Shown piece by piece: positions 6,013-52,699 of a DNA stretch of 64,000 nucleotides. This DNA is from an uncultured Verrucomicrobiota bacterium (GTDB lineage: Bacteria > Verrucomicrobiota > Verrucomicrobiia > Limisphaerales > UBA9464): assembly GCA_903842505.1 (NCBI GenBank), contig CAIMMI010000283.1:2568-66567 (forward strand), given 5' to 3'. Both the position numbers and the translations under genes were made by a program. Each line of letters opens with the position of its first letter. Positions within the stretch are counted from its first letter, which is position 1. The notes beneath the pieces were generated by a model that had not been told where the DNA came from, did no database searches, and saw nothing but the letters and a program-made list of their open reading frames with translations.

Positions 6013-6303
6013 GGATGAAAGTGATCGAGTGTTCGTGTCGTCGGTGGACGGGTCACCCAAACGGATGGGCGGCGGATTACCTTCGGGGGGGAATACACCG
6101 ATGAGGGGGACGACGTGAACCGGGAGGGAACCGTTGGAGGTAAACCCGTGGACGACAGGCGGAACATGAAGCGCAGCCGGGAGGGTGCAAACAGAAATTT
6201 TGCGACATTTGGGGGACGAACGGAACGGCGGGAATCCGGGACGAACGAACCGTCCATCGCGGGGCTCCACATTCATCCGGAGGTGGGGCAGAGTGGGCCC
6301 CGG

Positions 6304-30139: not shown

Positions 30140-31024
30140 TCAGCGGGTAGCGCGGGAGTTGAACGACGTGCGGTCCAGCAGCCAGCCCCAGTCCGCGTCC
30201 CGGACGGGCACGGGTGGAGGGCTGTAGGTGAAGTTGGGCTTCTCGAGGCGGACCGTGGTGCGCCAGGACTTGATCTCAGAGTGGCCATCGACGAAGGAAA
30301 GGCCACCTGCGCCGTTGTGGTAGTTGGCCGGCATGTCGATCCAGCGACGCTCGGTCTGCGAGTTGAAGAAGGCACCGTCGTTGATTGAGTCCGGGTTCTC
30401 ATCCAGGAACATCCAGAGTTCGGACGGCGACGGACGGTCGACGTCGGTCATCTTGATGAACAGCTTCTCGCAGCTCAGGAGGCCGTCGCCGGCGCTCTTG
30501 TTGCCCTTGCCGATGGCGCCGTTGGCGGAGATGGAGCGGACCCGTTCAGACCAGCCCTTACGCTTTTGGTTGGAGTGGACCAGCGTGTCGGCCGGGCACT
30601 TGTAGATCTTGGCGCTGTTGGCGGAATACTTGGCGAGCACCGCGTAGCGGGAATCCGTCAGGTAAACCCGGTTGGTGTTGTGCGCGCTCGTGTCCCACGT
30701 CAGCCAACCCATCACCCAGGGGCGTTCGCTGCCGCTGGACGCCTCGTTGATGATCGCACCGCTCTGGGCCGAGCCGCCGTGCGTGACCATCGGGAACTCT
30801 TCGCGGTTGTCACCGGCGTAGAGGTTCACGGCGAGCATGAGCTGCTTGGTGTTGCTCATGCAGAGGACGCCTTGGGCCTTGGTCTTCGCCTTGGCCAGCG
30901 CCGGCAGGAGCATGCCAGCCAGGATCGCGATGATGGCGATCACGACCAGCAACTCGATCAATGTAAACCCTGAGCAACGTCGCTGCGCTCGGGGCATGGG
31001 AGAACGCATAGGTGTACTGTTCAT
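30140..31024 (-). CDS. prepilin-type N-terminal cleavage/methylation domain protein with H-X9-DG motif (PVC-type pseudopilin-like)
   Basis: [29 protein letters not shown] is a class III signal sequence. [13 protein letters not shown] gives H-X9-DG near the C-terminus. Possible starts are at 31024, 31009 or 30997. Confidence 0.85.
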
Positions 31025-32281: not shown

Positions 32282-32493
32282 TCGCGAAGATCGAGCGTAA
32301 CGGTCGTCGTGGGTCGTTGTCCAATCACCTGAACCCCCGTTTCAGGTCGATGCCGAGAGTCGATGGGGCGGGAATTCCCTCAAGCCACACCGCCTTGTGA
32401 ATCGCAGCATCCAGAACCACCGACCGACTGCGCACGCGACCATCATGGTCGTTGCGGGATCGTCTGCAGTCCGGCAGGGTGCGGGTCTGGTTC

Positions 32494-33225
32494 ATGCGTA
32501 TCGTACTGTTCGACATCGATGGGACGTTGATCCGGACCGGGGGCGCTGGAATCAAGGCCTTCGCCCGGACGTCCGAGTCGGTATTTGGCCTTCCCGGCGG
32601 AACGGCCCACATGAGCTTTCACGGCAGGACGGATACGTCGTTGGTCCGGGAGTTCCTCCGGCATCACTCGCTTCCGGAAACGAAGGAGAACATGTCCCGT
32701 TTCCTCGATTCCTATCTCGTCCTCCTCGCCGAGATGCTGGCGGAGCATCCCGGAGAGCGGTGTCCCGGAGTGGGGCCGTTTCTCGAGGCGTGTCGGGCGA
32801 TGGTTCCGAAACCCGTCATCGGCCTGCTGACGGGCAACGTCCGGTTGGGAGCCGAACTGAAGCTTCGCGCCCACGGCCTGTGGGAGGAGTTCTCGGTCGG
32901 AGGCTTCGGCGACGATCACGAGGACCGCAATCAGATCGCGGCCATCGCCCGCCAACGGGCGGAGTTGGAGTTGGGCGTGCAGGCGTTGGATCACGAGGTG
33001 GTCGTCATCGGGGACACGGAACGGGACGTTGCCTGCGCGCGGGCCATCGGTGCCCGCTGCCTTGCGGTGGCTACGGGAGGAATTTCTGCGGGAGATCTCG
33101 CGCGGAGCAGCCCCGACTGGTTGTTCGCCGGGTTGGACGAAGTTCACCCGGAAGACCTCCGTTCGGGGGATCCCCGAGACCGGAGCCCGTTACACAAATC
33201 AGTGTCAGATCGGTTTTTGGTTTGA
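32494..33225 (+). CDS. HAD-superfamily hydrolase (phosphoglycolate phosphatase-like)
   Basis: MRIVLFDIDGTLI is the DxDGT motif I, and VVVIGDTERDVACA is motif IV. The start is at ATG 32494. Confidence 0.8.
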   Translation: MRIVLFDIDGTLIRTGGAGIKAFARTSESVFGLPGGTAHMSFHGRTDTSLVREFLRHHSLPETKENMSRFLDSYLVLLAEMLAEHPGERCPGVGPFLEACRAMVPKPVIGLLTGNVRLGAELKLRAHGLWEEFSVGGFGDDHEDRNQIAAIARQRAELELGVQALDHEVVVIGDTERDVACARAIGARCLAVATGGISAGDLARSSPDWLFAGLDEVHPEDLRSGDPRDRSPLHKSVSDRFLV

Positions 33226-33337: not shown

Positions 33338-35215
33338 ATGCTGAAATCAAAGTCATTCCTGACCCTCGATTTTGGGGCTGGTACCCTCAAGATCGCCGAA
33401 TTTGAGCCGTCCGAGGACGGAGGCCTTCGCTTGCTCCGCTTCGGCGTGAAGCCGCTCGGCCTTGCCGGTTCGCAGGAACCGGCCCGCGAGAACACCGTCA
33501 AAAAGGCGTTGGCCGAGTTGATCGCCGAGGGTGGCTTCGGTGGCCGTCAGGCGAATCTCTGCGCCCCCGGGTTCCAGGTCTTCTCCAAGTTCGTCAAGCT
33601 GGCCCCGGTCGATGCTTCGAAGGTGCCGCAGATCATGCAGTACGAGGCGCAGCAGAACGTGCCTTGGCCGCTGGCCGAATCCGCGTGGGATTACCAGATC
33701 CTCAGCACCACGCCCGGAGGCGAACTCGAGGTCCTGCTGGTCGGCATCAAGTCGGAGATCGTCGAGAAGCTGTTCTCGGTGGGCGAGGGAGTCGGTCTGA
33801 AGATGGACGTGGTGGACACATCCGTTGCCGCCCTCTGCAATGCTTTCCGTTACAACTACGCCGATCTGGACGGCTGCAGCCTCCTGATCGACGTGGGAGC
33901 CAAGACGAGCAACGTCCTGCTGATCGAGAAGAACCGCCTTTACGGTCGCTCGGTTCCGGTTGGCGCGAATGCGATCACCCAGGAGTTCGCTGCCGAGGCC
34001 AAACTTCCCTTCGCCGAGGCCGAAAAGATCAAGGTCAACGACGGCATGGTCAGTCTGGGCGGGGCGTACGAGGAACCGGACAATCCGCGGATTGCCGCCG
34101 TCTCCAAGGTTGCCCGCAACGTCCTCACCCGTCTGCACCTCCAGGTCAACCAGACCGTCCAGTTCTACCGCACCCAGCAGGGTGGCAACGCGCCCGTCCG
34201 GGTCTTCCTCTGCGGCGGCGGTTCCATCCTCCCGTACTCGGTCGAGTTCTTCGCCGAAAAGCTCAATCTCCCGGTCGACATCTTCAATCCGTTCCGCAAC
34301 GTCCTGATCGAGCCCTCGGTCGATGTTGCAGCGCTGGAAAAGGTGGCTCAGTCCTTCGGAGAAGTGGTCGGCCTGGGCCTGCGGAATGTGGCGCAGTGTC
34401 CGGTCGAGTTGAACCTGATGCCGAAGTCGTCCAAGTCCCGGCAGGAGTTCAACGCCAAGAAACCCTACCTGCTCGCCGCCGCCTACGCATTGGTGGTGGG
34501 TGTCTTTGCCTACGGGTGGTTCTACTCCCGGGTCGAAGCCGCGCGTCGCGAAGGTCTGGAGAAGATCACCGCCCAGGTGGAGCCGCTCAAGCAGCTCAAT
34601 GACACCCTGGCCCGGGAGATGGAAAACCTGAAGAAGGTTCAGGAGGAGTCGGGTCAACTGTCCACGTGGCTTGAGGACCAGACATTCTGGGCCGATGTGC
34701 TCTCGGAGTTGCGCCGGATCCTGATCGCCGCGGAGGAAGCCCAGCGGGTGAAGCTGAATAGCGGCCCCGGCACCGTCGGCGTCTGGATCGACACGTTGAT
34801 CACCACCGAGCCGACCCAGCCGGTCGCTCAGGCTTCCTCTGAGGAAACTCCCTCGAACTCGGCCAATCCTTACGGCATGGACCCGGTTCTGATGAAGCGG
34901 TACGGACTCGTGCCCCGCACCCAGCCGGCAGGCGAGGGTGGGGACGCAGCCGCTGACTCCGGTGCGGCCAAGAAACCCAAATCATCGAACTCGACCAACG
35001 AGATTGCGACGGTCAGCCTGACCCTCCGAGCGGTGAATCTTTCCCGCATCAAGACCGGGGCCAACAATGAACTGGTGTTCGAGGTTCAGAACCAGATGAA
35101 GGCCAGCCCGTTCTTCGATGCCAACGAGACCCGCTTCGACGGGACCCTCAGTGAGGAGGAGAACACGTTCTCCTTCCCGATGAAGATCAAGTTGAAGCGC
35201 CCGATGAAGCTCTGA
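33338..35215 (+). CDS. pilM: type IV pilus-like assembly protein, PilM-PilN fusion (Amuc_1101-like position)
   Basis: Residues 1-355 are an actin-like PilM fold (LTLDFGAGTLKIAEF, LLIDVGAKTSNVLL, FLCGGGS). Then comes ELNLMPK, a TM helix (PYLLAAAYALVVGVFAYGWFY), a coiled coil and a periplasmic domain, which matches a PilN-like architecture. Confidence 0.8.
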   Translation: MLKSKSFLTLDFGAGTLKIAEFEPSEDGGLRLLRFGVKPLGLAGSQEPARENTVKKALAELIAEGGFGGRQANLCAPGFQVFSKFVKLAPVDASKVPQIMQYEAQQNVPWPLAESAWDYQILSTTPGGELEVLLVGIKSEIVEKLFSVGEGVGLKMDVVDTSVAALCNAFRYNYADLDGCSLLIDVGAKTSNVLLIEKNRLYGRSVPVGANAITQEFAAEAKLPFAEAEKIKVNDGMVSLGGAYEEPDNPRIAAVSKVARNVLTRLHLQVNQTVQFYRTQQGGNAPVRVFLCGGGSILPYSVEFFAEKLNLPVDIFNPFRNVLIEPSVDVAALEKVAQSFGEVVGLGLRNVAQCPVELNLMPKSSKSRQEFNAKKPYLLAAAYALVVGVFAYGWFYSRVEAARREGLEKITAQVEPLKQLNDTLAREMENLKKVQEESGQLSTWLEDQTFWADVLSELRRILIAAEEAQRVKLNSGPGTVGVWIDTLITTEPTQPVAQASSEETPSNSANPYGMDPVLMKRYGLVPRTQPAGEGGDAAADSGAAKKPKSSNSTNEIATVSLTLRAVNLSRIKTGANNELVFEVQNQMKASPFFDANETRFDGTLSEEENTFSFPMKIKLKRPMKL

Positions 35216-35216
35216 T

Positions 35217-36173
35217 ATGCTCTGGATCAAGCGAAACCTGCTGTTTGTTGTCGGTCTGGCAGTGGCGGTAGCCCTGCTCGGCTTCGGCATCTTCTTCTAC
35301 CTCCTCGGCAACAGGGACGCTGCGGCGGCCGTGGATGCGGAGTTGGAATCCAAGAACACCGAGTATACGACGTTGGTCGATACCAAGCCGGCCCCCAGCA
35401 AGGCCAACATCGACGAGGCCAAGGATCAGCAGAAGCGCCTGGTCGCGTTCCGCGAATCCATGCGCCCTCAATTCCTGGTGACGCCGCTCCCGGAGAGCCT
35501 GGATGATGCCGCCTTCAAGAACCTGCTCGATCGCACGATCGACACCTTGGGCAAGATGGCCGACCGCAACGGAGTCAAGGTTCCCAAGCCCTCGGAAAAG
35601 GATCGGTACGCCTTCACTTTTGACACGCAGTTGAAGCAGTTGGAGTTCAGCCAGAAGTCCCTTCAACCGCTCTCGGCACAGTTGCTCGACATCCAGGATC
35701 TTTGCCGGACGTTGTTCGAATCGAAGATCCATTCGCTGGAGTCGATCCGCCGCACGCCGGTCAGCACCAATGACGTGACCCCGGTCGGCAACTACCTCGT
35801 CAAGAAAGTGACGACCAACTCCGTGACCGGAGCGTCGATCTTCCCCTACGAGGTCACCTTCCAATGCTTCAGTGCCGAGTTGGCCAACGTCCTGGCGGCC
35901 ATTGCCAACTCGGGCCCCACCTACGTCGTGAAGTCCGTCAACGTGGAACGTGGATCGGCAGAGGCTTTCAGCACGGCCAGTTCTGCCCCGGCCGCGGGTG
36001 GGATGAATGCGGTCCTGGCTGGACGCTATGGTCTCGCCGGTCGTGCGGCGCAGCCAGCGCCGGTCGCCCAGCGTCCGGGTGAGGCTGTTCTCGATGACAA
36101 GCCACTCCGGGTGACCCTGAATCTAGAGGTCATCAAGGTCCCGCTCCCTGCTCCCGCCGGAAAGAAGGGCTGA
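35217..36173 (+). CDS. Amuc_1100-family pilus-like (PilO-like) bitopic membrane protein
   Basis: 318 aa with an N-terminal TM helix. It shows collinear similarity to Akkermansia Amuc_1100 as recalled (AAFKNLLDRTIDTL, PYEVTFQCFSAELANVLAAI, LRVTLNLEVIKV). It starts 1 nt after the pilM/N stop. Confidence 0.7.
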   Translation: MLWIKRNLLFVVGLAVAVALLGFGIFFYLLGNRDAAAAVDAELESKNTEYTTLVDTKPAPSKANIDEAKDQQKRLVAFRESMRPQFLVTPLPESLDDAAFKNLLDRTIDTLGKMADRNGVKVPKPSEKDRYAFTFDTQLKQLEFSQKSLQPLSAQLLDIQDLCRTLFESKIHSLESIRRTPVSTNDVTPVGNYLVKKVTTNSVTGASIFPYEVTFQCFSAELANVLAAIANSGPTYVVKSVNVERGSAEAFSTASSAPAAGGMNAVLAGRYGLAGRAAQPAPVAQRPGEAVLDDKPLRVTLNLEVIKVPLPAPAGKKG

Positions 36174-36197: not shown

Positions 36198-36977
36198 ATG
36201 GATTTCCTAAAGAAGCATTACGAGAAGCTGGTTCTCTCGATCGTCCTTTTGGCGGTCGCTGTGGCCGCGTTCCTGCTCACGGTTCAAGTAGGTAACGTGA
36301 AGCAGACGCTCGCCGACCAACTCCAGCAGAAGATCGTCAAGAAGGGCGCCGTCCTTCCCCCGATCAATCTTTCGACCAATCAGGCCATCGCCACCCGGGC
36401 TGCCGCCCGGATCAAGGTGGTTCTCGACGGTCCACACAACACGTTCAATCCCGGTAGCTGGGAGAAGACCCCGGATGGTCTCCGCCGGAAACCGGGCAAG
36501 GCCGGTCTCGCCGGATTGAGCATCACCCGCGTCATCCCGTTGAATCTGGTGGTTGCCTTCAAGGCCGTTGCCGGAACTGCCGGTGAGTACCGATATCAGT
36601 ACTCGGTGATCCGGGAGTTCGAGAAGGTTCCAGCCAGCCGCCAAGCCCGGATCAAGTCGCTCAATCTGGGCGCCAAGGACGACCTCATCCATCTGGTCGA
36701 GGTCAAGGGCCCCAAGGAGGATCCGACGGAGCTCGTGTGCGAGTTGGTGGAGACGCGTGAGCGTTTCGTCCTGACCAAGGACAAGGATTTCCGGAAACCG
36801 TTTGGGTACGCTGCCGATCTTCGCTCCGAAGGGAAGGACTTCCTGGCGAAGCGGGTCGATGACGCGCTCAACCTTTCGGGAGTGACCTACAAGATTGTTG
36901 CCATTGGAAAAGACGAACTTGTAGTCTCTGCCCCCAATCAAGTGCGCACCACCATTGCCGCCGTTCCGGCTCAGTAA
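36198..36977 (+). CDS. pilus-like assembly protein (Amuc_1099-like / PilP-like position), bitopic
   Basis: 259 aa with an N-terminal TM helix (LVLSIVLLAVAVAAFLL). It sits between the Amuc_1100-like gene and the secretin. I have no motif-level identification. Confidence 0.55.
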   Translation: MDFLKKHYEKLVLSIVLLAVAVAAFLLTVQVGNVKQTLADQLQQKIVKKGAVLPPINLSTNQAIATRAAARIKVVLDGPHNTFNPGSWEKTPDGLRRKPGKAGLAGLSITRVIPLNLVVAFKAVAGTAGEYRYQYSVIREFEKVPASRQARIKSLNLGAKDDLIHLVEVKGPKEDPTELVCELVETRERFVLTKDKDFRKPFGYAADLRSEGKDFLAKRVDDALNLSGVTYKIVAIGKDELVVSAPNQVRTTIAAVPAQ

Positions 36978-37016: not shown

Positions 37017-39941
37017 ATGACCAACGCGTCCCGTCTCCTCAGCGTTCTCCTCGTGTGCGCATCTGCCCAGGGAGTGATGAGCCAAAGTCCCGGCCAGGTG
37101 GCTGAAGAAGAGGCCATTCGTCGGCAGGAAAAGACCATCGTTCTGCGCGATGCCCTGAATTCCGCCAACCAGCAGCAGAAGCAGGGTGATCTTGGCTCCG
37201 CTGCCAAGACCTATGAACAGGCTTGGGGTCTGGTGGAGCAGCTTGGTTCCTCGGTCGAGGCTGAGCGCACCCAGACTGTCCAGGGGTTCACCTCCGTCTA
37301 CATGGAACTTGTTGTCCGCTCCCTCAAGGACGGCGATTACAAGGAGGCGGATGCCCGTTTGAAGCGCGTCCTGGCCGTGGATCCCACCCACACCCTCGCC
37401 AAGCGCCTGAAGCGTGAGAACGATGAGCGCCTCGAGGAGATGAAGGGGCGGGCGCCGTCGGATAAGGCTCTGGAGTCGGTCGGCGACAAGCGCAAGGAGA
37501 TGATCGAGGCCGGTACCCACGAGCATAACGGCCAGCTTTTCTTCGAACTCGGCAAGCTTGAGGAGGCTGCTGCTGAATTCAAGGAAGCCTTGAAAATCAA
37601 CCCGGACAGCCGGGCAGCTCACCACTACCTCGCGGCCATCGAAGAACGGCAGTATTCCCGTGCGGCAGCCAAGCGCGAGTTGGCTTCCAAGGGACGCCTG
37701 GTTGAAGTGGAGGTCAACTGGGCCACCGAACTGCCCAAGCTTCCCGAGGCCAATCCGTACGCCACCACCAACTCGGTGCGCACGAGCCGCGGTCGGCAGG
37801 TGATCTACAACAAGCTGGATCGGATCCGGCTCAATGAGCTGAAGTTCGAAGGCCTTCCCCTCAGCGAGGTCGTCAAGACTCTTGAGGAGCAGTCCCGGCT
37901 CCGGGACCCGGACAAGAAGGGCATCAATTTCATCATCTCGTCCTCGGTGGACATTCCTCAGGCTCAGGCTGGTGTCGGAGGCATCGATCCGACGACTGGA
38001 CTTCCTGCTCCTGCCGCTCCGGTGGAGCCTCTGGATGTCTCGGCCGTAAACGTGCGCCTCGTTCCCGGACTGAAGGATGTCCGCTTGGCCGACGCTTTGG
38101 ACGCGATCACCAAGGTCGCTGAGAAGCCCATCAAGGTCTCCGTCGAGGACTACGCGGTCATCTTCACGCAACGCCTTCCGCAGGCGGAGCAACTCTTCAC
38201 GCGCCGTTATCGAGTCAATCCCAACACCTTCTATCAAGGCTTGGAGTCCGTCATTGGCTTGCCCCTGCCGATTGACAGCCAAGGCGGTGGTGGCGGCGGC
38301 GCCGGTGGTGGTGGTGGTGGTGGTGGCGCTGGCGGCGGTGCCGGCGGCGGCATGGGCGGTCAGGGTGGCGGCATGTTCACGATTCCCCGCGTCGAGGTCA
38401 CCATGGGTGGCGGCGGCATGGGCGGTGGCATGGGCGGCGGCATGGGCGGCGGCATGGGCGGCGGCATGGGCGGCGGCATGGGCGGCGGCATGGGCGGCGG
38501 CATGGGCGGCGGCGGCATGGGCGGCGGCATGGGTGGTGGTGGCGGCGGTGGAAGCATTGGCTTCGGCCCCGGCATCGGTGGTGTGACCCGGACGCAGTAC
38601 ATGGTCAGCATCCAGGACATCGTCCGGCAGTTCTTCATTGCTTGCGGTGTCAACTTCCCCCTCAGCCCGCTTCAACTCCAACAGGGCGGTGGCCTGGGTG
38701 GTGGTGGACTCGGCGGCGGTCAGGGCCAGTTCGGCGGTGGTCTCGGGGGCCAGGGCCAACTCGGTGGCCAGCAGTCGCAGGACACGAAGGCCATGTTCTT
38801 CAACGACCGAACGGGTATCCTGTTCGTTCGTGCGACCCTCAGCGATCTCGACATCATCGAGCAGGCCATCCAGGTCCTCAATGTCGCGCCGCCCCAGGTG
38901 CAGATCGAAGCCAAGTTCGCCGAAGTCACCCAGCAGGACGGCCGGGCCATCGGCTTCGACTGGTATCTGGGCAACTTCCTGATGAACAACGGGTCGATGG
39001 GTCTTGGTGGTGGCACCGCCCCCAGCGTGAACACGCCGGGTGGAGCGACCGAACCCAGGACCTCCCTGGCCAACAGCGAAGGCACCTTCCCGGGCAATGT
39101 CGCCTCCGGAACTGCCATCCCTGCCGGCGCCAGCGACGGATTGCTGACCTCGGGTGTCCGCAATCAGGACGCCAACCAGTCGGCCATCCCCACGATCGCC
39201 ACCTTCAGCGGCATCCTCACGGATCCTCAGTTCCGCCTCGTCATCCGCGCTCTGGAGCAGCGCGATGGTGTTGATCTGCTCTCCGCTCCGCGCGTTACGA
39301 CCCTCTCGGGCCGGCAGGCGCAGATCTCCGTCGTCGATGCCCGTCGGATCGTGCTCGACGTGAACCAGAACCAGGGCGGCCAGCAGGGCGGCGGGGCCGG
39401 GGTGGTCCAACCGACCGGTGTCGGTCAGGTCATCCAACAGAACCCGATCGGGTTCGGTTACACCACGGCGAGCCTGCCGTTCGGTCCGACGTTGGACGTC
39501 ATTCCTTACGTCTCTGCCGACGACGTCTCCATCCAGATGTCGATCATCCCGGCCTACACCGAGTTCATCGGATATGACAATCCGGGTGACTTTGTGCCCG
39601 TCCAAACGGGCCCGAATGTGGCGCCGGTCCGCGCTCGCTTGCCGTTGCCGCGCATCCGCCTCCGTCAGGTGACGACGTCGGCCATCGTCTGGGACGGCCA
39701 GACCGTGGTTCTCGGTGGCTTGATCGCAGAGGACGTGAAGAAGACCCGTGACAAGGTCCCCGTGCTCGGTGACATCCCGTTCGTGGGTCGTTTGTTCCGG
39801 TCCGAGGCTTCGCTCAACGCCAAGAAGAACCTCGTGATCTTCGTGACGCCGACGATCATCGATCCCGCCGGCAAGCGCATCCATCCGGATGACTCTCTGC
39901 CGTTCGACCCGAACACCGTCCCGACTCAGGCAGCCCACTGA
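37017..39941 (+). CDS. pilQ: secretin (type II/III secretion / PilQ family) with TPR-like N-terminal region and a Gly/Met-rich insert
   Basis: Signal peptide MTNASRLLSVLLVCASAQG. The C-terminal secretin core includes PRVTTLSGRQAQISVV, LDVIPYVSADD, VVLGGLI, VPVLGDIPFVGRLF and NLVIFVTPTII. Confidence 0.88.
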   Translation: MTNASRLLSVLLVCASAQGVMSQSPGQVAEEEAIRRQEKTIVLRDALNSANQQQKQGDLGSAAKTYEQAWGLVEQLGSSVEAERTQTVQGFTSVYMELVVRSLKDGDYKEADARLKRVLAVDPTHTLAKRLKRENDERLEEMKGRAPSDKALESVGDKRKEMIEAGTHEHNGQLFFELGKLEEAAAEFKEALKINPDSRAAHHYLAAIEERQYSRAAAKRELASKGRLVEVEVNWATELPKLPEANPYATTNSVRTSRGRQVIYNKLDRIRLNELKFEGLPLSEVVKTLEEQSRLRDPDKKGINFIISSSVDIPQAQAGVGGIDPTTGLPAPAAPVEPLDVSAVNVRLVPGLKDVRLADALDAITKVAEKPIKVSVEDYAVIFTQRLPQAEQLFTRRYRVNPNTFYQGLESVIGLPLPIDSQGGGGGGAGGGGGGGGAGGGAGGGMGGQGGGMFTIPRVEVTMGGGGMGGGMGGGMGGGMGGGMGGGMGGGMGGGMGGGGMGGGMGGGGGGGSIGFGPGIGGVTRTQYMVSIQDIVRQFFIACGVNFPLSPLQLQQGGGLGGGGLGGGQGQFGGGLGGQGQLGGQQSQDTKAMFFNDRTGILFVRATLSDLDIIEQAIQVLNVAPPQVQIEAKFAEVTQQDGRAIGFDWYLGNFLMNNGSMGLGGGTAPSVNTPGGATEPRTSLANSEGTFPGNVASGTAIPAGASDGLLTSGVRNQDANQSAIPTIATFSGILTDPQFRLVIRALEQRDGVDLLSAPRVTTLSGRQAQISVVDARRIVLDVNQNQGGQQGGGAGVVQPTGVGQVIQQNPIGFGYTTASLPFGPTLDVIPYVSADDVSIQMSIIPAYTEFIGYDNPGDFVPVQTGPNVAPVRARLPLPRIRLRQVTTSAIVWDGQTVVLGGLIAEDVKKTRDKVPVLGDIPFVGRLFRSEASLNAKKNLVIFVTPTIIDPAGKRIHPDDSLPFDPNTVPTQAAH
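38403..38550 (+). repeat. in-frame 12-bp tandem repeat (GGCATGGGCGGC)n encoding 11 consecutive M-G3-4 units inside the secretin gene
   Basis: The DNA reads catgggcggcggcatgggcggcggcatgggcggcgg... The protein reads MGGGGMGGGMGGGMGGGMGGGMGGGMGGGMGGGMGGGGMGGGMGGGGGGG. Confidence 0.95.
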
Positions 39942-40019: not shown

Positions 40020-41912
40020 ATGATGGACCTACGGAACATCAGCGGAACTCGGTGGTACGGGGGCAGGGGCCCCGGCCTGATTCAGGCGGCTGTCGCGGCA
40101 TGCGCATTGGGTCTGGTACCCATTGCCCACGCCGAGGTGGCACTGGAGGGGACAGAGTACAACGTGGTCGGTCGCATCAACGGCGATCAGACTCATCCGG
40201 CAGTAACCTTCCAAGGTAGCCGAGGCTACGTGGCGTGGCAGGACAACTCCACGGATGGCTCGGGTCTCGGGATCCGCGCCCGTCGGATCGAAGCCAGCGG
40301 CAGCGCTTCTTCGGAGGCCTTCCGCGTCAACGAGTCCGCTTCGGACGATCAGGAAGCCGTTGCCGTTGCCACCTTGAAGGATGGATCCACCGCATTCGCT
40401 TGGCTGGGTGGCAAGCGGGGGCAGCAGGGGATCTTCGTTCGGATTCTTTCTCCCGATGGCACCTTCGTCCGGGGTGAAACCCGGGTCAGCGCTGCCGGTT
40501 CGGATTGCCGGGCTCCCTCGATCGCCGCGCTTGCCAACGGCGGCGCAGCGGTGGTGTGGTCCGCCCAGGGTGCGGATGGCGACGGGCTCGGCATTGTTGC
40601 CCAGCGATTGAGCGCTTCCGGCCTTCCGGTTGGCCCTTCTATCGCCGTCAACGAATACACCTGGGACAACCAACGCAGCCCTCAGGTTGCCGCTGGTTCT
40701 GACGGCGGTTTTGCCGTTGCTTGGGTTTCTGACCTTCAGAACGGGAACAACCGGGCTGATGTCTACGTCCGCCCCGTCTCTGCTGACGGAGTTGCGGGTG
40801 CGGAGTATCGGGTCAACTCGGGCACTGCGCCTTGCAGTTATCCGACGCTCGCTTCGGTGGGGCAGGGATGGGTGGTGGCCTGGTCTGCTGCGGAGATCTC
40901 GCAGGAGGACTCCCGCTTCACCATCAACGCCCGCTGGTTGGATGCGAATGGATTCCCGGCTCAGGCCGTGAAGGCGGTTTCCGGGGCCGAGGGCAACCAC
41001 ACACGCCCTTGTATCGCGGTATCCGCTCAGCGTTTGCTGGTGTCGTGGACCGGAACCAAGGTGGACGCTTCGGGCGTTGGCATTGGCGGTCGAGTGTTCA
41101 CCGTGCAAGGCGAGGCCGTCGGGCCTGCGTTGCCTCTGAACGCGGTCTCCCGAGGTGACCAGATGACACCGGCGGTTTCCGGCTTGGGCGATGGCCGTTT
41201 CCTGGCCGTCTGGTCCAACTGGTCCGGTCTGGACAAGGGCATGGATCTCTCCGCGCAGCGCCTCGCCCCGGACGTGGCTCCGCTGGTGGCGCCCGGTGCT
41301 CCGGTGGTTTCCGGTTTGAGTTCCTGGCAGGTCCGAGCGGCATGGGCTCCGGTTTCCGGACTGCCCGTGACCCACTACGAAGTCTACTTCGACGGCAGCG
41401 AGACTCCTCAGACGACGACCGACTCCTTCTGGTCTTCGCCCGATGTCCTGCCGGCAACGACGCACACCGTTCAGGTGGCGTATGTGCTTGGCGACGGCCG
41501 ACGTTCTCCCAAGTCCCCCGTGGTCGCCGGCAAGTCGTGGGGCAAGGATGCCAACAGCGATGGACTTCCCGATGACTGGCAGTCGCAGTTCTTCGGCACC
41601 AGTGCGGTTGCCTGGCCTTCCCCTTCTGTCGACAGCGACAAGGACGGCGTGAGCAACCGGGATGAGTTCCTGGCCGGGACGGATCCCAAAAATGCTGCCG
41701 ATGTCCTGAAGGTCGCCCTCAACCAGACCGAGCAGGGCCCCGAACTGTCCTGGAGCGCGCTCCCGGGCGGTGTTTACCAACTCCAGATGTCCACCAATCT
41801 GGAGAGCTGGGATAACGTGGGTGGATACCGTTTCTCCGCTGGTTCAACGGACTCCCTGGTTCTCCAGGAAGCCCCTCTGAACGCCTATTTCCGGGTCAAC
41901 CGCATTCGCTGA
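40020..41912 (+). CDS. secreted 7-repeat beta-propeller-like protein with FN3-like domain, TSP3-like Asp repeats and a lineage-type C-terminal domain
   Basis: Signal peptide ending ...LVPIAHA. There are seven ~53-aa repeats (Q..PAVA...G.F.VAW.S...DG...GI.ARR....G). An FN3-like segment follows (VTHYEVYFDG...HTVQVAY), then DANSDGLPDDW and DSDKDGVSNRDEFLAGTDP, and a C-terminal W..Y.LQ.S..L..W...FRV domain. Confidence 0.7.
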   Translation: MMDLRNISGTRWYGGRGPGLIQAAVAACALGLVPIAHAEVALEGTEYNVVGRINGDQTHPAVTFQGSRGYVAWQDNSTDGSGLGIRARRIEASGSASSEAFRVNESASDDQEAVAVATLKDGSTAFAWLGGKRGQQGIFVRILSPDGTFVRGETRVSAAGSDCRAPSIAALANGGAAVVWSAQGADGDGLGIVAQRLSASGLPVGPSIAVNEYTWDNQRSPQVAAGSDGGFAVAWVSDLQNGNNRADVYVRPVSADGVAGAEYRVNSGTAPCSYPTLASVGQGWVVAWSAAEISQEDSRFTINARWLDANGFPAQAVKAVSGAEGNHTRPCIAVSAQRLLVSWTGTKVDASGVGIGGRVFTVQGEAVGPALPLNAVSRGDQMTPAVSGLGDGRFLAVWSNWSGLDKGMDLSAQRLAPDVAPLVAPGAPVVSGLSSWQVRAAWAPVSGLPVTHYEVYFDGSETPQTTTDSFWSSPDVLPATTHTVQVAYVLGDGRRSPKSPVVAGKSWGKDANSDGLPDDWQSQFFGTSAVAWPSPSVDSDKDGVSNRDEFLAGTDPKNAADVLKVALNQTEQGPELSWSALPGGVYQLQMSTNLESWDNVGGYRFSAGSTDSLVLQEAPLNAYFRVNRIR

Positions 41913-41915
41913 CAT

Positions 41916-43409
41916 ATGGGATCCACCTTTAGACTTACGACCAAACTCCTGCCTTTGTTCGCCGGGTGTTATCTGGCGCAGGGGTTTTCGCTGATGGGGC
42001 CCGCTGAGTCGTGGCAAACGGCTGATCTTGGGTACAGCCCGCCGGGCGTTCAGACTTTCGCCCAGGAGGGCGACGTTGGATTTCCGGTCGCCTTGGGAGA
42101 GGAGTTCCGGGTCAATATCCCGGTGATCACCTATGGTTTCGACCAGTCGTTTCTCGAGTACTTCGGGGTCGAGGGTGTGAAGGCGGTCGATGCGGCCTTC
42201 AAGGCTTTCAACGATCTGGCTCCCGTTTCAAACTTCAGTTCCGACCTGACGGAGTTTCCCAAGGCAACGGCGCGGGTCAACTTTACCGCGCAGCGATTGT
42301 CCCTGTTGGATGTCAAGTCCATCACCATGGGGCTGATCATCGAGCAGTTGGGGTTGGCGGCACCGGAGCGGTTCGTGTGGACCCTTCGTCAGCGCAATGA
42401 GGATAACGGGTTCCAGATGTTCAATGTGATCAGCCGGAATTATGATCCGGTGACCCTTCGAGCCACGCCCTACGTCAACGACAGCCTTTACACCTACCTG
42501 GTCCGTCCGTTCGTTCGGAACGGGGCTATCGTTTACTGGGACGCTCAGGAGATCTCGCTGGACGCCGCCGAGCCCAATGTCTCGCTCGCCGCTTACGCCG
42601 GGATGAACGTGCCAACGATTGACGGTCGGGTTGGCCGGCAGATCGCGTGGACCAGTTATGGTTCCTATTATACCGGTTTGACGCGCGACGACGCGGGCGG
42701 ACTGAGATATCTCTACCATCCGGAAAACCGGAACGTGGAGGTATTGCCTGCACTGGTTGGTCCCTTGAGCACAACTCCGGTCACAAAACTCGGGAGCAGC
42801 TCCGGCGGGTCCGGAAACTGGGCGCCTTTTACCGGAACGGGATTCGCCAACGGGAACACCAACGCTCCCGGAGGCGGTGTTACCATCATCAATCAGGGTG
42901 TTCGACCTGGACTCGACAAGATCCAGTTCATGCGGGTGGACATGGATCCGTTGTTGAGTCAGTTCACCCGTCCGCTTGTCTTCCGATACACGGATACGGT
43001 GATGACCAATGGGGTTACACGGACCCAAAGGGTGGAGAAGCAGTTGGCGAGGCCTGACATTGTGTTGACCATGGGTGACCTCGGGACTTGGCCTGCACCG
43101 TTCGCTCCCTATCCCTGGATCTACGGTCGTGGCAAGGAATACAACCTGCTCGGCAGCATCAACGGCATCAGTGGGAATACTTTCGATGCCCAAGGGCCTG
43201 GATTGGTTGAATTCAATACGGGCGGTCTCTTCCTCTTCAACCGTGCCGCGGGTGGCCGGATCAATCTAGGCTCCGGAACCACGGAACAGGACTCCACCAC
43301 GACTTTCGTGTGGGGCAGCTTTGACGGTTCTACGAATGCGCCCGTGGTCTACCCGGCAGGGCGTTTGACTCTGAGAGATCTGGAACGTGTGGCCCTGAGC
43401 GGGAACTGA
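41916..43409 (+). CDS. hypothetical secreted protein or lipoprotein (497 aa)
   Basis: The N-terminus MGSTFRLTTKLLPLFAGCYLAQGFSLMGP is a signal peptide with a possible lipobox (FAGC). It starts 3 nt after the upstream stop. I recognise no family. Confidence 0.65.
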   Translation: MGSTFRLTTKLLPLFAGCYLAQGFSLMGPAESWQTADLGYSPPGVQTFAQEGDVGFPVALGEEFRVNIPVITYGFDQSFLEYFGVEGVKAVDAAFKAFNDLAPVSNFSSDLTEFPKATARVNFTAQRLSLLDVKSITMGLIIEQLGLAAPERFVWTLRQRNEDNGFQMFNVISRNYDPVTLRATPYVNDSLYTYLVRPFVRNGAIVYWDAQEISLDAAEPNVSLAAYAGMNVPTIDGRVGRQIAWTSYGSYYTGLTRDDAGGLRYLYHPENRNVEVLPALVGPLSTTPVTKLGSSSGGSGNWAPFTGTGFANGNTNAPGGGVTIINQGVRPGLDKIQFMRVDMDPLLSQFTRPLVFRYTDTVMTNGVTRTQRVEKQLARPDIVLTMGDLGTWPAPFAPYPWIYGRGKEYNLLGSINGISGNTFDAQGPGLVEFNTGGLFLFNRAAGGRINLGSGTTEQDSTTTFVWGSFDGSTNAPVVYPAGRLTLRDLERVALSGN

Positions 43410-43439: not shown

Positions 43440-46400
43440 ATGAAGCGTTTCCCAGCCTCTCTTTTCGCCTTGGCTACCGCCTCGGTGGCGTTGCTTGCCC
43501 GCACGGACGAGCAGTACGTCAACAACGGCACTGTCACGGTTCCCCCGCAGATCGACGCGAAGCGGGTGATCAACCGTGGCACGATGACCCTCATCGGCAG
43601 CACCAAGCCCTTCGAGACCTCCAATACGGAGATCTACCAGAACGAGGGTACGATCCTTGCCAACCCTGGCATCCGATTCCACCTGGTTGATGACGCAGGA
43701 TTCCGTCGTCCGTCGACCCTATTCTCCAACTCGGCGGCGGGGGTTGTCGCGACGACGAACAACTTCTTCCTTTCGGCAAGCCCGACGTCATTGGGGGGGC
43801 TCGGATCGCCTTCGATCCTGAACATCTTCCGGAGTGTTCCGGACGCCTTCCTGTCGATTGATGCCAACAAGATCGTCAATCGCGGCGCTCTGGTGACCTC
43901 CTCGGGAGGCGAGATTCGCCTGACGGGTTCGGACATCGATCTGGCCCGTTCGACAATCAATGTACAACCGCTGCCGGATGGTCGGAGCACGACCGGACGG
44001 CGTGACGGTGGGGTGACCCCGTTGCCTGGGCAGTTGGACACGTATTGGTGGTACGATGTCACTAGGGTGGACTACGACCAGTTGGTGACGCTGCAGACGG
44101 CGACGATTCCGACTCCTGCGGGCCGCGTTACGTTGACCAATGCTGCGGTCTTCTCTCCACTGTTTCCTTATGTGGCTCCCGGGGTGAATCCCGCGGAATT
44201 GCCGTTGCCGGAACGCTTGATCCGGATGCAAGGCCTGTTGGGGAGTACGGTTCATCCGTTTGTCTGGATCACCACCAACGATGCGGCAGCGACGTCCATT
44301 ACGAACAGCACCAACCAGGTCATCACGGTTCTGTTGGTCCGCAGCTCGGATCCGAATGTCCTCGTTGAGGCCAAGGCACAGCGCGGTCGTGATCCGAACC
44401 AGCCTTTGCCGACGGTGCGCCTCCGCTTGACCTCGGTGGGTACGAACCTGATCACGGGAAAGAGCGATGCGGTCGCGTTCACGCTGCAGAACACGTTTGG
44501 GTCTGATTATCAGAACCTGCTCCTGAGCAATCGGGTTTCGGGAAACACGTATCAGCCGACGAACTTCCTGATGTTCAAGCAGACGTTCGCGGACGTAGTG
44601 AATCCTTTTGGTGGGTTGGCCTCAGTTGACACCAACCTGTATGCCAAGGCGCTCGCTGCGTTGAAGGCGGATCTGGAACTCCGGGATATCAGTTTCGCCG
44701 GCCAGACTTCGAATGCTGCTTTCCGGCAAGACCTCTTCACGACCTGGAACGGGGTCGGCGCTACCAACCTCGCCTACACCAATTTGGTGGCGACGAATTC
44801 GTACGCGGCTTACGGGGCGACGTTCACCTACCAGGGTTCGACGATCCCCCGACCTGCTGATGTTGAGGCGGCCGCGCCAACGAACCTGTCCGGGCGCGTC
44901 ATCATCGATGCCAACAAGCTCGATCTCAGCCGCACCCGCATTCGGGCCCAGGGACCGGTCATCATCCGGGCCAACGACCTCAAGACCTCGACGGGCAGTG
45001 CCATCGACGCTCCGTTCATGAATGTGGAGCTGGGTTCGAGCACGGGCGACCTGAAGATCCAGAACCTGTTCCAGGGATCGATCGATCGTTTCGCCGGTCG
45101 CCTTCAGGTCTTCTCGAGCTCCTGGTCCAACAATCCTCCTGACCAGACGGTCACGATCACCAATGCGCCGACCAATCCGGGGGATCCTGCCACGACGACC
45201 GATGTGACGGTCGCCTTGAATGCTGTCTTCCACGTCATGATTGTGGACGCGGACTTCAGCGCGTCGGTCCAGACGCCCTTCGTCGACCTGAAGCTCAACA
45301 GCACCAACGTGACGATTACGGATGGGATCCGGGTGGATCGTTTCGCTGCGGTCCAGACCGAGAATTTGACCATCGACGGTTCCTTGCTGCTGAAGGGCAC
45401 GAACGGGGGTTCGGCCACCTTCAACTGGGATAGGACCTCCTTCCCGACCCTCAAGCGGCTTACCAACAACGGCACCATCGAAGTCGCGCAGGTCGGCGAG
45501 TTCGGCACGGCCCAGAACCCCTACGACGTGCTCGTCAATAATGGCGAGATTACGGCAGCAGGGGTGGTGATGGCGGCGAACGACCTGATCGCGTCTGAGG
45601 GATCCCAGATCACTTCGCAAGGCGGTTTGCTCGATATCACGGCGAAGCGGTTGACGGTGCGGGGTGGCCTTTCCGCCCCGAACTCGATGACCCTTCGTGC
45701 CGAGGATGCGGTCTTCGGGGGTGGCTCGAGGTTCGTAGCCGATTACGTCGACGTTTCTGCGGGTCGTCGCCTCTTTGTTGAGGACACGGGGGCCAGCCTT
45801 GTGACCGGCTACGGAGTCTCGGTTGCTTCGCTGCCTGCGGGTTCGGATGTTCAGGGACTGACGATCTCGACCAAGGTTGAGGCCTACCAGGAAGCCATTC
45901 ACGTCTGGCCGGGTGCGGACGTTGGGCCGACGGCAGCGGGCTTTGACCGCGAGTCGATTGCCTCGCTGGAGTTGGACGGCGGAACGCTGTCCCAGCTGAC
46001 GTTCCGGGGAACGGGGGCGCAGAACGCCCTGTATGTGAGTTTCCTCACCCTCTCCACGAATCTGGCTACCACCAACACGGTTGGCGGCAAGCTCGCCCTT
46101 CTGGACCCGAGCATCTTCAACGTGGAGCCGGGCTTCACGGTTTACTTCGCTGGTGCGAATGTTCCGCCTGCCCAGTTCGAGGCCCTCACGGGAGGCAAGT
46201 TCAAGTACGTGAGCTTCGCCGGTGCGGGTTCACCGCTGGTGACCGCCACGGTCAACGGCAAGCCGACTCAGGTTTCCCGAGGCCTGCGCACGAGCGTCCG
46301 GATCGATTCGGATGGCGACGGCGTGGTGAACGCTTATGACGCGGATCCGTTCGAAGGCGTCGTCACGAGCCCGAATGTGGCACAGGACACGGACCGCGGT

Positions 46401-46586
46401 TTCGTGGTCAAGTGGGACGCCGCTGGTTGGGGAACCTATGAGGTCCAGTACAGCGATCGCCTGAACGGGGAGTGGAAGACGCTCCAGAAGGTGACGAATC
46501 CTGACGGAACCCGGAAGCTCCTCTGGGTTCGGGATCCGATTCCCGAATCGGACGGCGCCCGGGCCTACCGGGTTCTGACCAAGTGA
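43440..46586 (+). CDS. large secreted protein (1048 aa), probable beta-helix/adhesin-like, with a TSP3-like repeat and the shared C-terminal domain
   Basis: Signal peptide MKRFPASLFALATASVALLA. Recurrent N(N/R/E)G(T/A/E)(I/L/M) turns (NNGTVTV, NRGTMTL, NEGTILA, NRGALVT, NNGTIEV, NNGEITA) suggest a repetitive beta-solenoid. DSDGDGVVNAYDADP is followed by the C-terminal W..Y.VQYS..L...W...YRV domain. Confidence 0.7.
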   Translation: MKRFPASLFALATASVALLARTDEQYVNNGTVTVPPQIDAKRVINRGTMTLIGSTKPFETSNTEIYQNEGTILANPGIRFHLVDDAGFRRPSTLFSNSAAGVVATTNNFFLSASPTSLGGLGSPSILNIFRSVPDAFLSIDANKIVNRGALVTSSGGEIRLTGSDIDLARSTINVQPLPDGRSTTGRRDGGVTPLPGQLDTYWWYDVTRVDYDQLVTLQTATIPTPAGRVTLTNAAVFSPLFPYVAPGVNPAELPLPERLIRMQGLLGSTVHPFVWITTNDAAATSITNSTNQVITVLLVRSSDPNVLVEAKAQRGRDPNQPLPTVRLRLTSVGTNLITGKSDAVAFTLQNTFGSDYQNLLLSNRVSGNTYQPTNFLMFKQTFADVVNPFGGLASVDTNLYAKALAALKADLELRDISFAGQTSNAAFRQDLFTTWNGVGATNLAYTNLVATNSYAAYGATFTYQGSTIPRPADVEAAAPTNLSGRVIIDANKLDLSRTRIRAQGPVIIRANDLKTSTGSAIDAPFMNVELGSSTGDLKIQNLFQGSIDRFAGRLQVFSSSWSNNPPDQTVTITNAPTNPGDPATTTDVTVALNAVFHVMIVDADFSASVQTPFVDLKLNSTNVTITDGIRVDRFAAVQTENLTIDGSLLLKGTNGGSATFNWDRTSFPTLKRLTNNGTIEVAQVGEFGTAQNPYDVLVNNGEITAAGVVMAANDLIASEGSQITSQGGLLDITAKRLTVRGGLSAPNSMTLRAEDAVFGGGSRFVADYVDVSAGRRLFVEDTGASLVTGYGVSVASLPAGSDVQGLTISTKVEAYQEAIHVWPGADVGPTAAGFDRESIASLELDGGTLSQLTFRGTGAQNALYVSFLTLSTNLATTNTVGGKLALLDPSIFNVEPGFTVYFAGANVPPAQFEALTGGKFKYVSFAGAGSPLVTATVNGKPTQVSRGLRTSVRIDSDGDGVVNAYDADPFEGVVTSPNVAQDTDRGFVVKWDAAGWGTYEVQYSDRLNGEWKTLQKVTNPDGTRKLLWVRDPIPESDGARAYRVLTK

Positions 46587-46630
46587 ATCAACGAACGGCC
46601 GCCCCACGGGGCGGCTGTTCCCTTTCTGAC

Positions 46631-47248
46631 ATGGTCCGTTGGGGAATCACCGGTGGCATTGGCGCCGGGAAATCCGTCGCTGGAGGTATCCTGGCCGCGC
46701 GTGGTATTCCGGTGCTCGATACCGACGATGTCGCGCGGGAGGTGGTTCAACCGGGCACGGAGGGTCTTGCGGAGGTTGTGCAACGGTTTGGGCACGGAGT
46801 GCTGCGGGAGGATGGGAGCCTCGACCGTGCAGCGCTGGCGGCCGTCGTCTTCCACTCGGACGAGCGCCGAAGGGAACTGGAATCCATTCTCCACCCCCGG
46901 ATCCATGCCACCTGGTCCGCTTGGTTGGAGCGTCAGCAGGCGATGGGAACCCCTTTGGCTGCGGTGGTGATCCCTCTGCTCTTCGAGAAGGGGTATGCGG
47001 GCGACTTCCACGACGTGATCGCCGTGGGATGTACGGACCTCACCCAGCGCATCCGGTTGTTGGCACGCGGCTGGGACGATTCACAGAGGGATGCCCGGGT
47101 CGGGTCGCAATGGCCTACGGCGTGCAAGATGGCGGCCGCGGATCGGGTCATCTGGAACGAGGGCACTGCCGACGTCCACGCGAGGCAATGGGACCGATTA
47201 CTTGCTGCCCGGCTTGGTGGCGGGGGTGGCTGCCAGATCGGCCGGTAG
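46631..47248 (+). CDS. coaE: dephospho-CoA kinase
   Basis: WGITGGIGAGKS is a P-loop, followed by VLDTDDVAREVV. The start is at ATG 46631. The 3' end overlaps pyrE convergently by 51 bp. Confidence 0.88.
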   Translation: MVRWGITGGIGAGKSVAGGILAARGIPVLDTDDVAREVVQPGTEGLAEVVQRFGHGVLREDGSLDRAALAAVVFHSDERRRELESILHPRIHATWSAWLERQQAMGTPLAAVVIPLLFEKGYAGDFHDVIAVGCTDLTQRIRLLARGWDDSQRDARVGSQWPTACKMAAADRVIWNEGTADVHARQWDRLLAARLGGGGGCQIGR

Positions 47249-51929: not shown

Positions 51930-52631
51930 ATGTTGACTGGAACACGGGTTCAGGCGCAGGAGGCGGGGAGCAGGCCATTGCTGGTGGTCCTGCATGGGCT
52001 GGGAGACTCATCTGAAGGATGGGAATGGCTTCCGCAGGAGTTGCAGTTGCCGTGGATGAACTACCTGCTGGTCAATGCACCGGACGAATACTTCAGCGGG
52101 CGGAGTTGGTTTGGGATCCGATTCCCGAAGGATGGGCGCGTCGATGGGACGCTGCCGCCGGTGGATGGTGGGGCGATTGAACGGTCGCGGAGGCTGCTGT
52201 GGGAGTTGATCGATGCCGAGCGGGCGAACGGGTTGAAGTCGGAAGAAATCGCCGTGCTGGGATTCTCGCAGGGTTGTCTGATGACTCTGGAAGCTGGGCT
52301 TCGGTATCGGGATCCGCTCGCCGGCTTGGTTGGGATCAGCGGTTGGGTGCATGAGCCAGAGCAGTTGATTGCGGAGGCGCCGGGCCATGCGCGATCGGTT
52401 CCGGTATTGATGACGCACGGGACTGTCGATCCGCTGTTGGGGATCGAGCACGTGAGGCCGCAGGCGAAGCGTGTGAAGGATGCCGGGTTCGACCTGTCTT
52501 GGCAGGAGTTCGACAAGGAACACACGGTGGCCGGTCGCGCCGAGGTCCAGTTCATCGCGCGATTCCTGGAACAGAGTTTCGGCAGGCCGGTGGCGCGTCG
52601 CCGGGGTTCCGCAGGGACTGCGGCCGAGTAA
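51930..52631 (+). CDS. alpha/beta hydrolase (phospholipase/carboxylesterase family)
   Basis: LLVVLHGLGDS and the nucleophile elbow GFSQGC, with HGTVDPL near the C-terminus. The start is at ATG 51930. Confidence 0.8.
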   Translation: MLTGTRVQAQEAGSRPLLVVLHGLGDSSEGWEWLPQELQLPWMNYLLVNAPDEYFSGRSWFGIRFPKDGRVDGTLPPVDGGAIERSRRLLWELIDAERANGLKSEEIAVLGFSQGCLMTLEAGLRYRDPLAGLVGISGWVHEPEQLIAEAPGHARSVPVLMTHGTVDPLLGIEHVRPQAKRVKDAGFDLSWQEFDKEHTVAGRAEVQFIARFLEQSFGRPVARRRGSAGTAAE

Positions 52632-52699
52632 AAACCAGTTTTGACACACCGGAAGCCGGCCGTTGGATCGGTCGGATTCCAATGCAGGATGGATCGTCC

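Follow-up and report, generated by a model that had tools for sequence, protein, structure and literature searches.

Amuc_1100 of Akkermansia is a much-studied 'postbiotic' protein, usually discussed as an Akkermansia-specific, host-facing protein of the outer membrane. Here we analyse a homologous gene found in an environmental relative, at positions 35217-36173 of a stretch of 64,000 nucleotides (hereafter the window; contig CAIMMI010000283.1, positions 2,568 to 66,567) from an uncultured Verrucomicrobiota bacterium of the Limisphaerales, together with the cluster of genes that surrounds it.

Amuc_1100 contains two alpha-beta-beta motifs, like proteins of type IV pili (T4P) and type II secretion systems (T2SS), according to a passage of PMC13119276 that cites Wang et al. 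2020. It is called PilO/PilN-like in the text of a recent preprint, where its gene cluster defines the MUL2 locus and is said to be important for acquiring mucin (bioRxiv 10.64898/2025.12.30.696933). Passages of a further study (PMC13174399, ISME J 2026) report that MUL2 synteny is found in Akkermansiaceae of aquatic origin and frequently extends to other families of the Verrucomicrobiales, that it is less common in Chthoniobacterales, and that Methylacidiphilales show none; amuc_1100 is still listed there as uncharacterised, and the Limisphaerales are not mentioned in the main text. Comparative genomics published in 2019 found no Amuc_1100 homologue even in A. glycaniphila (PMC6828834), a failure that shows how divergent the family is. 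Among the papers searched, we found none discussing the locus in Limisphaerales or Pedosphaerales.

The PilO-like fold, the conservation of the locus beyond Akkermansia and the existence of curated NCBIfam and Pfam families are already known, and the locus described below is no new kind of system. What is modestly new is that the family and its locus reach, at the level of the order, into free-living Limisphaerales, that the family is large, and that the composition of the locus varies, with no Amuc_1102-like gene and with three extra conserved secreted proteins.

Results

An open reading frame for a single-anchor membrane protein

The gene under study has the following features.

35217..36173, forward strand: Amuc_1100-family gene; ATG start, 318 codons and a stop; assigned by NF038287, hhalign, an AlphaFold2 (AF2) model and Foldseek

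The opposite strand of this interval carries stops throughout. A preliminary description of this DNA had proposed the same frame, a product of 318 amino acids (aa) and a single N-terminal transmembrane (TM) helix, all of which are exact. The TM segment, LLFVVGLAVAVALLGFGIFFYLL, covers residues 8-30 (23 residues) and is the sole strongly hydrophobic stretch of the protein; the Kyte-Doolittle profile, with a window of 19 residues, reaches its maximum of 2.78 at a position centred on residue 17. Lysine and arginine residues stand on the N-terminal side of the helix, and no obvious signal-peptidase site was seen. In an alignment of 30 relatives the N-terminal motif M-x-W-I-K-R-N is nearly invariant, and it is common to the Akkermansia protein in the form W-I-x-x-N, which fits a cytoplasmic contact and an N-in topology. 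Beyond the anchor, predicted periplasmic helices extend to about residue 118 and are followed by a core of two alpha-beta-beta units, made of residues 146-245 and of a last strand at 297-307. A disordered linker rich in alanine, proline and glycine (residues 246-296 approximately; 14 A, 7 G and 5 P of 51) precedes that strand.

Membership of the Amuc_1100 family

Two sources gave the true Amuc_1100 sequence: the PDB alignment for entry 6LAF, and a cluster representative of 317 aa (P0082). The preliminary description had quoted Amuc_1100 accurately: its length, given there as about 317 aa, is 317 aa, and the quoted fragments TPSRSSNEELEKELNRYAKAVGSLETAYKPFL, TAFQNELKTFRDSLISSCKKKNILI, PLEIAFQGDRESVLKAMNAITG and VFVQVSLNLVHF all occur verbatim in it. 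The collinear blocks that had been drawn between the two proteins were also recovered, since the register found by hhalign was exactly the same for blocks 2, 3 and 5, and differed by some 2 residues at most for block 1. The Ala/Pro-rich linker said to exist in both proteins does so, in each case before the last strand and with glycine as a further abundant residue.

Curated and profile-based searches assigned the protein to the Amuc_1100 family. The NCBIfam model NF038287, 'Amuc_1100 family pilus-like protein', matched with an E-value of 1.4e-20 and 74 bits, residues 1-307 being aligned with positions 1-322 of the 326 of the profile; the same model matched every one of 30 diverse relatives from the clade (30/30), with a best E-value of 9.8e-26. 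An alignment of 30 relatives of the window protein (A1) was compared by hhalign with an alignment of 13 Akkermansia Amuc_1100 proteins (A2), and the two were matched with 96.4% probability and E=1.1e-9 over 299 columns, from residue 2 to the C-terminus, structured core included. The Pfam family PF28028, 'Amuc_1100', is precomputed on a protein 99% identical to ours (P0001), on all the relatives listed, and on Akkermansia Amuc_1100 itself. The window protein matched 0 Pfam families, even at E<=10, in a copy of Pfam that did not contain the PF28028 model.

The claim of a "clear homologue" of Amuc_1100 thus stands at the level of profiles and structure, where both hhalign and Foldseek (see below) gave significant matches, but not at the level of pairwise comparison, where neither BLASTP nor phmmer gave a significant one. 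A tblastn search of Amuc_1100 against the whole window returned no match either. We conclude that the protein belongs to the Amuc_1100 family as a divergent member, that is, a family-level homologue and not a curated equivalog; this assignment is well supported.

A predicted fold of the Amuc_1100 type, with PilO as the next structural match

A template-free AF2 model was obtained, with a predicted local distance difference test score (pLDDT) of 74. It is laid out as a long N-terminal TM and helical segment, two more helices, a helix-strand-strand-helix-strand unit, a disordered loop and a last strand. The elements of the core are helix 146-168, strands 173-179 and 207-217, helix 219-230, and strands 235-245 and 297-307. 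When the model was searched with Foldseek against 350,542 PDB chains, the ten best matches were all Amuc_1100 crystal structures (6LAF, 6LAD and 6KNY), with E-values from 1.9e-8 to 1.2e-7, target TM-scores of 0.66-0.80 and an identity of about 14%. Model and search agree on a fold of the Amuc_1100 type, in which a helical region is combined with two alpha-beta-beta motifs as in these three structures.

The matches that came next were PilO: 2rjz at E=1.5e-3 (probability 1.00), chain O of 3jc8 at 3.3e-3, and 5uvr at 7.4e-2. The AF2 model, the Foldseek matches and the single TM segment together give the protein the bitopic topology of PilO, with a ferredoxin-like predicted periplasmic domain of two alpha-beta-beta units. 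No PilO model was found among the NCBIfam matches of the window protein. The GspM model NF040576, whose cutoff is 60 bits, scored 22.4 bits (E=8e-5) over residues 213-264 only and was matched by 5/30 members of the clade (best E-value 6.6e-6); the Pfam GspM family PF04612 did not match the window protein.

The surrounding gene cluster

Around the Amuc_1100-like gene, the cluster comprises the following features.

32452..33225, forward strand: HAD-family hydrolase; 5' boundary of the cluster, in the position of Amuc_1102 in Akkermansia; found upstream in 41 loci
33338..35215, forward strand: Amuc_1101-family PilM-like protein of 625 aa (PilM_2, 1.3e-29; NF045709, 479 bits)
36198..36977, forward strand: p259, a bitopic protein of 259 aa in the Amuc_1099/PilP slot; present in 77/80 related loci
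37017..39941, forward strand: Amuc_1098-family outer-membrane secretin of 974 aa with N-terminal tetratricopeptide repeats (TPR) (Secretin, 3.6e-32; NF042912, 376 bits)
40020-41912, 41916-43409 and 43440-46586, forward strand: p630, p497 and p1048, large secreted proteins, tightly packed and co-directional
46583..47248, forward strand: dephospho-CoA kinase gene coaE; downstream anchor, whose predicted start overlaps the p1048 stop

The start codon of the Amuc_1100-like gene lies 1 nt past the stop of the PilM-like gene (junction TGA-T-ATG), and terminator-like sites were not in excess within the cluster. Among 80 related loci, all those on contigs of sufficient length show the same order of PilM-like gene, Amuc_1100-like gene, p259, secretin, p630, p497 and, in part of them, p1048.

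For the 625-aa protein, the best family was Amuc_1101_fam, with 479 bits vs 129 bits for the generic PilM family, and its identity to Amuc_1101 is 31%. Residues 1-350 form a domain of the PilM/FtsA ATPase fold; an 'ELNLMP' motif, a TM helix and a predicted periplasmic C-terminal part follow. The motif, 'CPVELNLMP' in its longer form, and the helix occupy residues 355-405 approximately, and 'CPxELNL[ML]P' followed by a TM helix is kept in 74 loci. Akkermansia Amuc_1101 has a degenerate version, 'LNIDLEP', also followed by a TM helix. In type IV pilus systems the N-terminal INLLP peptide of PilN binds PilM, and the 'CPxELNL[ML]P' motif resembles this peptide. With its PilM domain, INLLP-like motif and TM helix, the protein encoded upstream therefore looks like a fusion of PilM and PilN, an architecture reminiscent of GspL.

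The product of the next gene, p259, combines an invariant N-terminal K-x-Y-E-K motif, a TM helix and an all-beta predicted periplasmic region (residues 108-254). Its model had a pLDDT of 80 overall and of about 90 for residues 110-250; it nevertheless yielded no Foldseek match at E<=1e-3, and the sequence had no match in the PDB. Among the members of its family, 26/30 weakly match Amuc_1099_fam (NF042425) within the N-terminal 45 aa, with a best E-value of 8.5e-5. The relatives of p259 are all unannotated and without a Pfam domain.

The secretin is 33% and 24% identical to Amuc_1098, and the family that fits it best after Amuc_1098_fam is GspD. The three proteins encoded behind it carry signal peptides and, apart from the TSP3 repeat, belong to no Pfam family. 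They follow the secretin in 50 (p630), 47 (p497) and 28 (p1048) of the 80 loci, many of the others ending earlier, whereas the Akkermansia locus has none of the three. The machine may use them as cargo, as fibre or as adhesin. p630 and p1048 have in common a TSP3-like repeat and a C-terminal module (31% identity over 61 aa). A TSP3-like repeat, DPDNDG, is also found in Akkermansia Amuc_1099.

Neither Amuc_1102 nor Amuc_1099 gave a tblastn match in the window or in the 80 related loci. A frame of 315 aa starting with GTG at 32397 was considered as a counterpart of Amuc_1102 and rejected: it is an Arg/Gly-rich, out-of-frame reading, and the real gene at this place uses a different frame and is that of the HAD hydrolase. 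A single pilin-like gene was seen in the window. It encodes a protein of 294 aa with a prepilin-type N-terminal methylation motif (30140-31024, reverse strand), 2.3 kb upstream of the cluster and on the opposite strand; an H-x9-DG-like motif is present near its C-terminus.

Comparison with the Akkermansia locus and with other described systems

The Akkermansia locus used for comparison (L081) encodes, in order, Amuc_1102 (238 aa), Amuc_1101 (612 aa), Amuc_1100 (317 aa), Amuc_1099 (337 aa), Amuc_1098 (906 aa) and, directly after the secretin, a CoaE-Rho fusion that is one protein of 673 aa. In the window, too, an Amuc_1101-type PilM-like gene stands upstream of the Amuc_1100-like gene and an Amuc_1098-type TPR-secretin gene downstream, in the same order. 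Since the best families of these two neighbours are Amuc_1101_fam and Amuc_1098_fam, and not the generic PilM and GspD families, and since coaE lies downstream in both cases, the two loci appear to be orthologous. In the Limisphaerales, the window locus corresponds to the Amuc_1098-1102, or MUL2, cluster of Akkermansia, which according to secondary sources is needed for mucin acquisition. The operon context had been described as conserved, and in part it is: the PilM-like gene, the secretin and coaE are kept. On the other hand, there is no Amuc_1102-like gene, the occupant of the Amuc_1099 slot has only a weak, N-terminal likeness to Amuc_1099, and three genes are added.

The resemblance to Akkermansia Amuc_1100 itself extends from length (318 vs 317 aa) to organisation, both proteins having an N-terminal W-I-x-x-N motif and a single TM helix, then a helical region and two alpha-beta-beta units with an Ala/Pro-rich loop before the last strand. 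Both genes lie between an Amuc_1101-family PilM-like gene and an Amuc_1098-family TPR-secretin gene, with coaE downstream. The differences are the host, here a GC-rich (64%) environmental member of the Limisphaerales and not a gut Akkermansia, and the low identity of about 14-15%. TLR2 activation or other host signalling would have no obvious relevance in such a host. At the level of the locus, p259 is shorter than Amuc_1099 and lacks its TSP3 repeat, no Amuc_1102-like gene is adjacent, and three genes for secreted proteins are extra.

The MUL2 locus (amuc_1099-1102), as presented in passages of PMC13174399, shares with the window locus the PilM-like MUL2B, Amuc_1100, a nearby secretin and the coaE/rho neighbourhood, as well as the combination of low identity and conserved synteny. 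In those passages MUL2 is tracked through MUL2A (Amuc_1102) and MUL2B, whereas the window clade has no detectable MUL2A beside the cluster.

PilO (2RJZ, 5UVR, 3JC8 chain O) resembles the window protein in its architecture, in which a short N-terminus in the cytoplasm is followed by a TM helix, a coiled coil and a ferredoxin-like periplasmic core of two alpha-beta-beta units, and in the place of its gene, after PilM/PilN-type genes and before that of the secretin. The window protein differs in that it exceeds PilO by about 100 aa and contains additional helices as well as a long disordered insertion; moreover PilM and PilN are fused upstream of it, no sequence match to Pfam PilO was found, and the next gene, p259, encodes no detected PilP-like fold. 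As to the T2SS, GspL resembles the upstream gene product in that its PilM-like domain, in the cytoplasm, is joined through a TM helix to a ferredoxin-like domain in the periplasm, and GspM is its PilO-like partner. Weak NF040576 matches are a further likeness. Unlike in a T2SS, scores are far under the cutoffs, no other gsp genes lie nearby, and the window secretin has TPR repeats.

Distribution of the family

One genome per species was scanned, and 349 species genomes were found to contain a relative; almost all of them are labelled Verrucomicrobiota. Many of the carriers are metagenome-assembled genomes (MAGs) named 'Limisphaerales', 'Pedosphaera' or 'subdivision 3', with isolate names that suggest lakes, ponds, groundwater and peat, and the closest genome is a Limisphaerales MAG chromosome, at 91% identity. 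Together with the G+C content of the window, 64.3%, these environmental MAG relatives bear out the view that the protein comes from a GC-rich, apparently free-living relative of Akkermansia. An exhaustive profile search retrieved 2,888 clusters (at 50% identity) at E<=1e-3, and 1,889 at E<=1e-10.

Nine relatives that are 38-63% identical to the window protein (L004, L008, L019, L030, L034, L035, L042, L047 and L049) come from environmental MAGs with public titles 'Akkermansia muciniphila' or 'uncultured Akkermansia sp.'. These labels are probably wrong, because the composition of the loci is of the Limisphaerales type and not of the Akkermansia type.

Discussion

A proposed PilO-like component of a secretin machine

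Given the homology, the fold, the topology signals and the synteny described above, we think it likely that the 318-aa protein sits in the inner membrane as a PilO-like component, has the PilN-like part of the neighbouring protein as its partner, and helps to link the platform to the secretin. The gene can be said to hold the PilO/GspM position because it follows a PilM-PilN-type fusion and is placed two genes upstream of the secretin; this is the PilO-type order, after pilM/pilN and before pilP/pilQ. In this proposal the protein would have the PilO/GspM role in a T4P/T2SS-like machine that spans the envelope. From its anchor in the inner membrane it would associate with the Amuc_1101-family fusion protein, through the periplasmic part of the latter, and together with p259 it would connect the inner-membrane platform to the outer-membrane TPR-secretin of the Amuc_1098 family. 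The preliminary description had ventured that the ancestral role of the family is structural and PilO-like, within a secretin machine, and this suggestion is supported by the ranking of PilO directly after Amuc_1100 in the search with the predicted model and by the pilMNOPQ-like gene position. The machine probably acts on environmental polymers, by attaching to them, by taking them up or through secretion connected with them, and the three secreted proteins of the operon may be handled by it.

Several results weigh against such a role. The NF038287 score of 74 bits is far under the equivalog cutoff of 180, which is also the reason why relatives are labelled 'hypothetical protein', and functional equivalence with Amuc_1100 is not implied. 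The structural likeness to PilO is modest, with target TM-scores of 0.52-0.63 and E-values from about 1e-3 to 7e-2, and the Pfam families PilO (PF04350), PilN and T2SSM did not match the window protein even at E<=10. The C-terminal half of the PilM-like protein, compared with PilN, GspL and T2SSM, gave only an insignificant match to T2SSM (E=0.014), and p259 gave no match to a PilP-like fold. The window was found to contain no pilus ATPase, no platform protein and no Amuc_1102-like pilin. Finally, fractionation and immunofluorescence place Akkermansia Amuc_1100 at the outer membrane or cell surface (PMC5332112), in conflict with an inner-membrane PilO role.

This last point is the starting point of another explanation, in which the protein is a surface-exposed, pilus-associated or outer-membrane protein with a structural or adhesive function, as Amuc_1100 is usually described. 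Akkermansia Amuc_1100 co-fractionates with outer-membrane and envelope proteins and is detected on cells, the window protein is homologous and syntenic to it, and its long, flexible Ala/Pro-rich loop could be exposed. Envelope fractions contain trans-envelope complexes too, however, and the 23-residue N-terminal segment, preceded by K/R and devoid of an obvious signal-peptidase site, points to a TM anchor and not to a cleaved signal peptide. The fold belongs to inner-membrane components of the PilO/GspM type, not to pilins or beta-barrel outer-membrane proteins, and the highly conserved N-terminal motif makes sense only if the N-terminus is kept in the cytoplasm. We consider a surface location unlikely for these reasons. 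Alternatively, it may be that the protein is the GspM equivalent of a dedicated T2SS-like system that builds no pilus, with the upstream fusion as GspL equivalent and p630, p497 and p1048 as exported proteins. The GspL-like fused architecture, the weak NF040576 matches, the rank of GspD as next-best secretin family and the three conserved signal-peptide proteins directly downstream would all fit. Yet the GspM match reaches 22 bits where 60 are needed and is seen in only 5/30 members, the best structural match outside Amuc_1100 is PilO and not GspM, and no GspC, GspE, GspF or GspG-K genes were found in the window. The Akkermansia locus, moreover, is without cargo-like genes and has the pilin-like Amuc_1102 instead (L081; PMC13174399, in the passages describing it). 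A dedicated secretion system is, in our opinion, quite improbable.

A more radical explanation would be that the resemblance to Amuc_1100 is convergent or due to chance, and that an unrelated hypothetical membrane protein was singled out by its composition (TM helix, coiled coil, Ala/Pro linker). Pairwise and single-profile searches could be read in this way: BLASTP against the Amuc_1100 sequence of 6LAF gave E=1.1, not significant and in the wrong register, which also counts against the role proposed here; phmmer against all PDB chains returned no Amuc_1100 entry and nothing relevant; a profile of the window clade found 6laf among the PDB sequences with E=0.36, which is not significant by itself; and the identity is about 14-15%. 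Chance or compositional similarity is nevertheless excluded by the NCBIfam, profile-profile and Foldseek matches and by the presence of PF28028 on both clades. Four independent lines agree, namely the curated hidden Markov model NF038287, hhalign, Foldseek and the shared neighbours (Amuc_1101 and Amuc_1098 families and coaE), so that chance or convergence is effectively refuted.

The preferred reading, that of a PilO-like component, can be combined with the variant composition of the locus. The Limisphaerales version would then be a distinct variant of the MUL2 machine that lacks an adjacent Amuc_1102-type pilin and employs p630, p497 and p1048 as fibre, adhesin or cargo, a combination that we put forward tentatively and regard as rather doubtful.

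Finding a full-length Limisphaerales homologue of the same fold in the same secretin/PilM cluster, in a family of thousands of sequence clusters across Verrucomicrobiota, supports an ancestral job in a T4P/T2SS-like envelope machine, with host signalling as a by-product. If the Limisphaerales version is such a variant, ancestral Amuc_1100 would have been an inner-membrane assembly factor of the PilO/GspM type, belonging to a polymer-capture or secretion apparatus widespread in free-living Verrucomicrobiota, and what is seen of it in Akkermansia, at the outer membrane and in host signalling, would have arisen secondarily or be incidental. Aquatic Pedosphaeraceae reportedly take up polysaccharides into the periplasm in a 'selfish' manner, and the machine might underlie this uptake. 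The family also gives a context for the localisation and mechanism of Amuc_1100, and provides many natural variants with which to probe the features, if any, that confer activity on TLR2.

Other genes of the window

Two further genes were noted away from the cluster. The rho gene (4297-6948, reverse strand), 40 kb from coaE, encodes a protein of 883 aa with a long N-terminal extension. On the other side, the interval 52499-54880 (forward strand) encodes a protein of 793 aa with four IPT/TIG domains and a DUF11 domain, which is probably a cell-surface protein.

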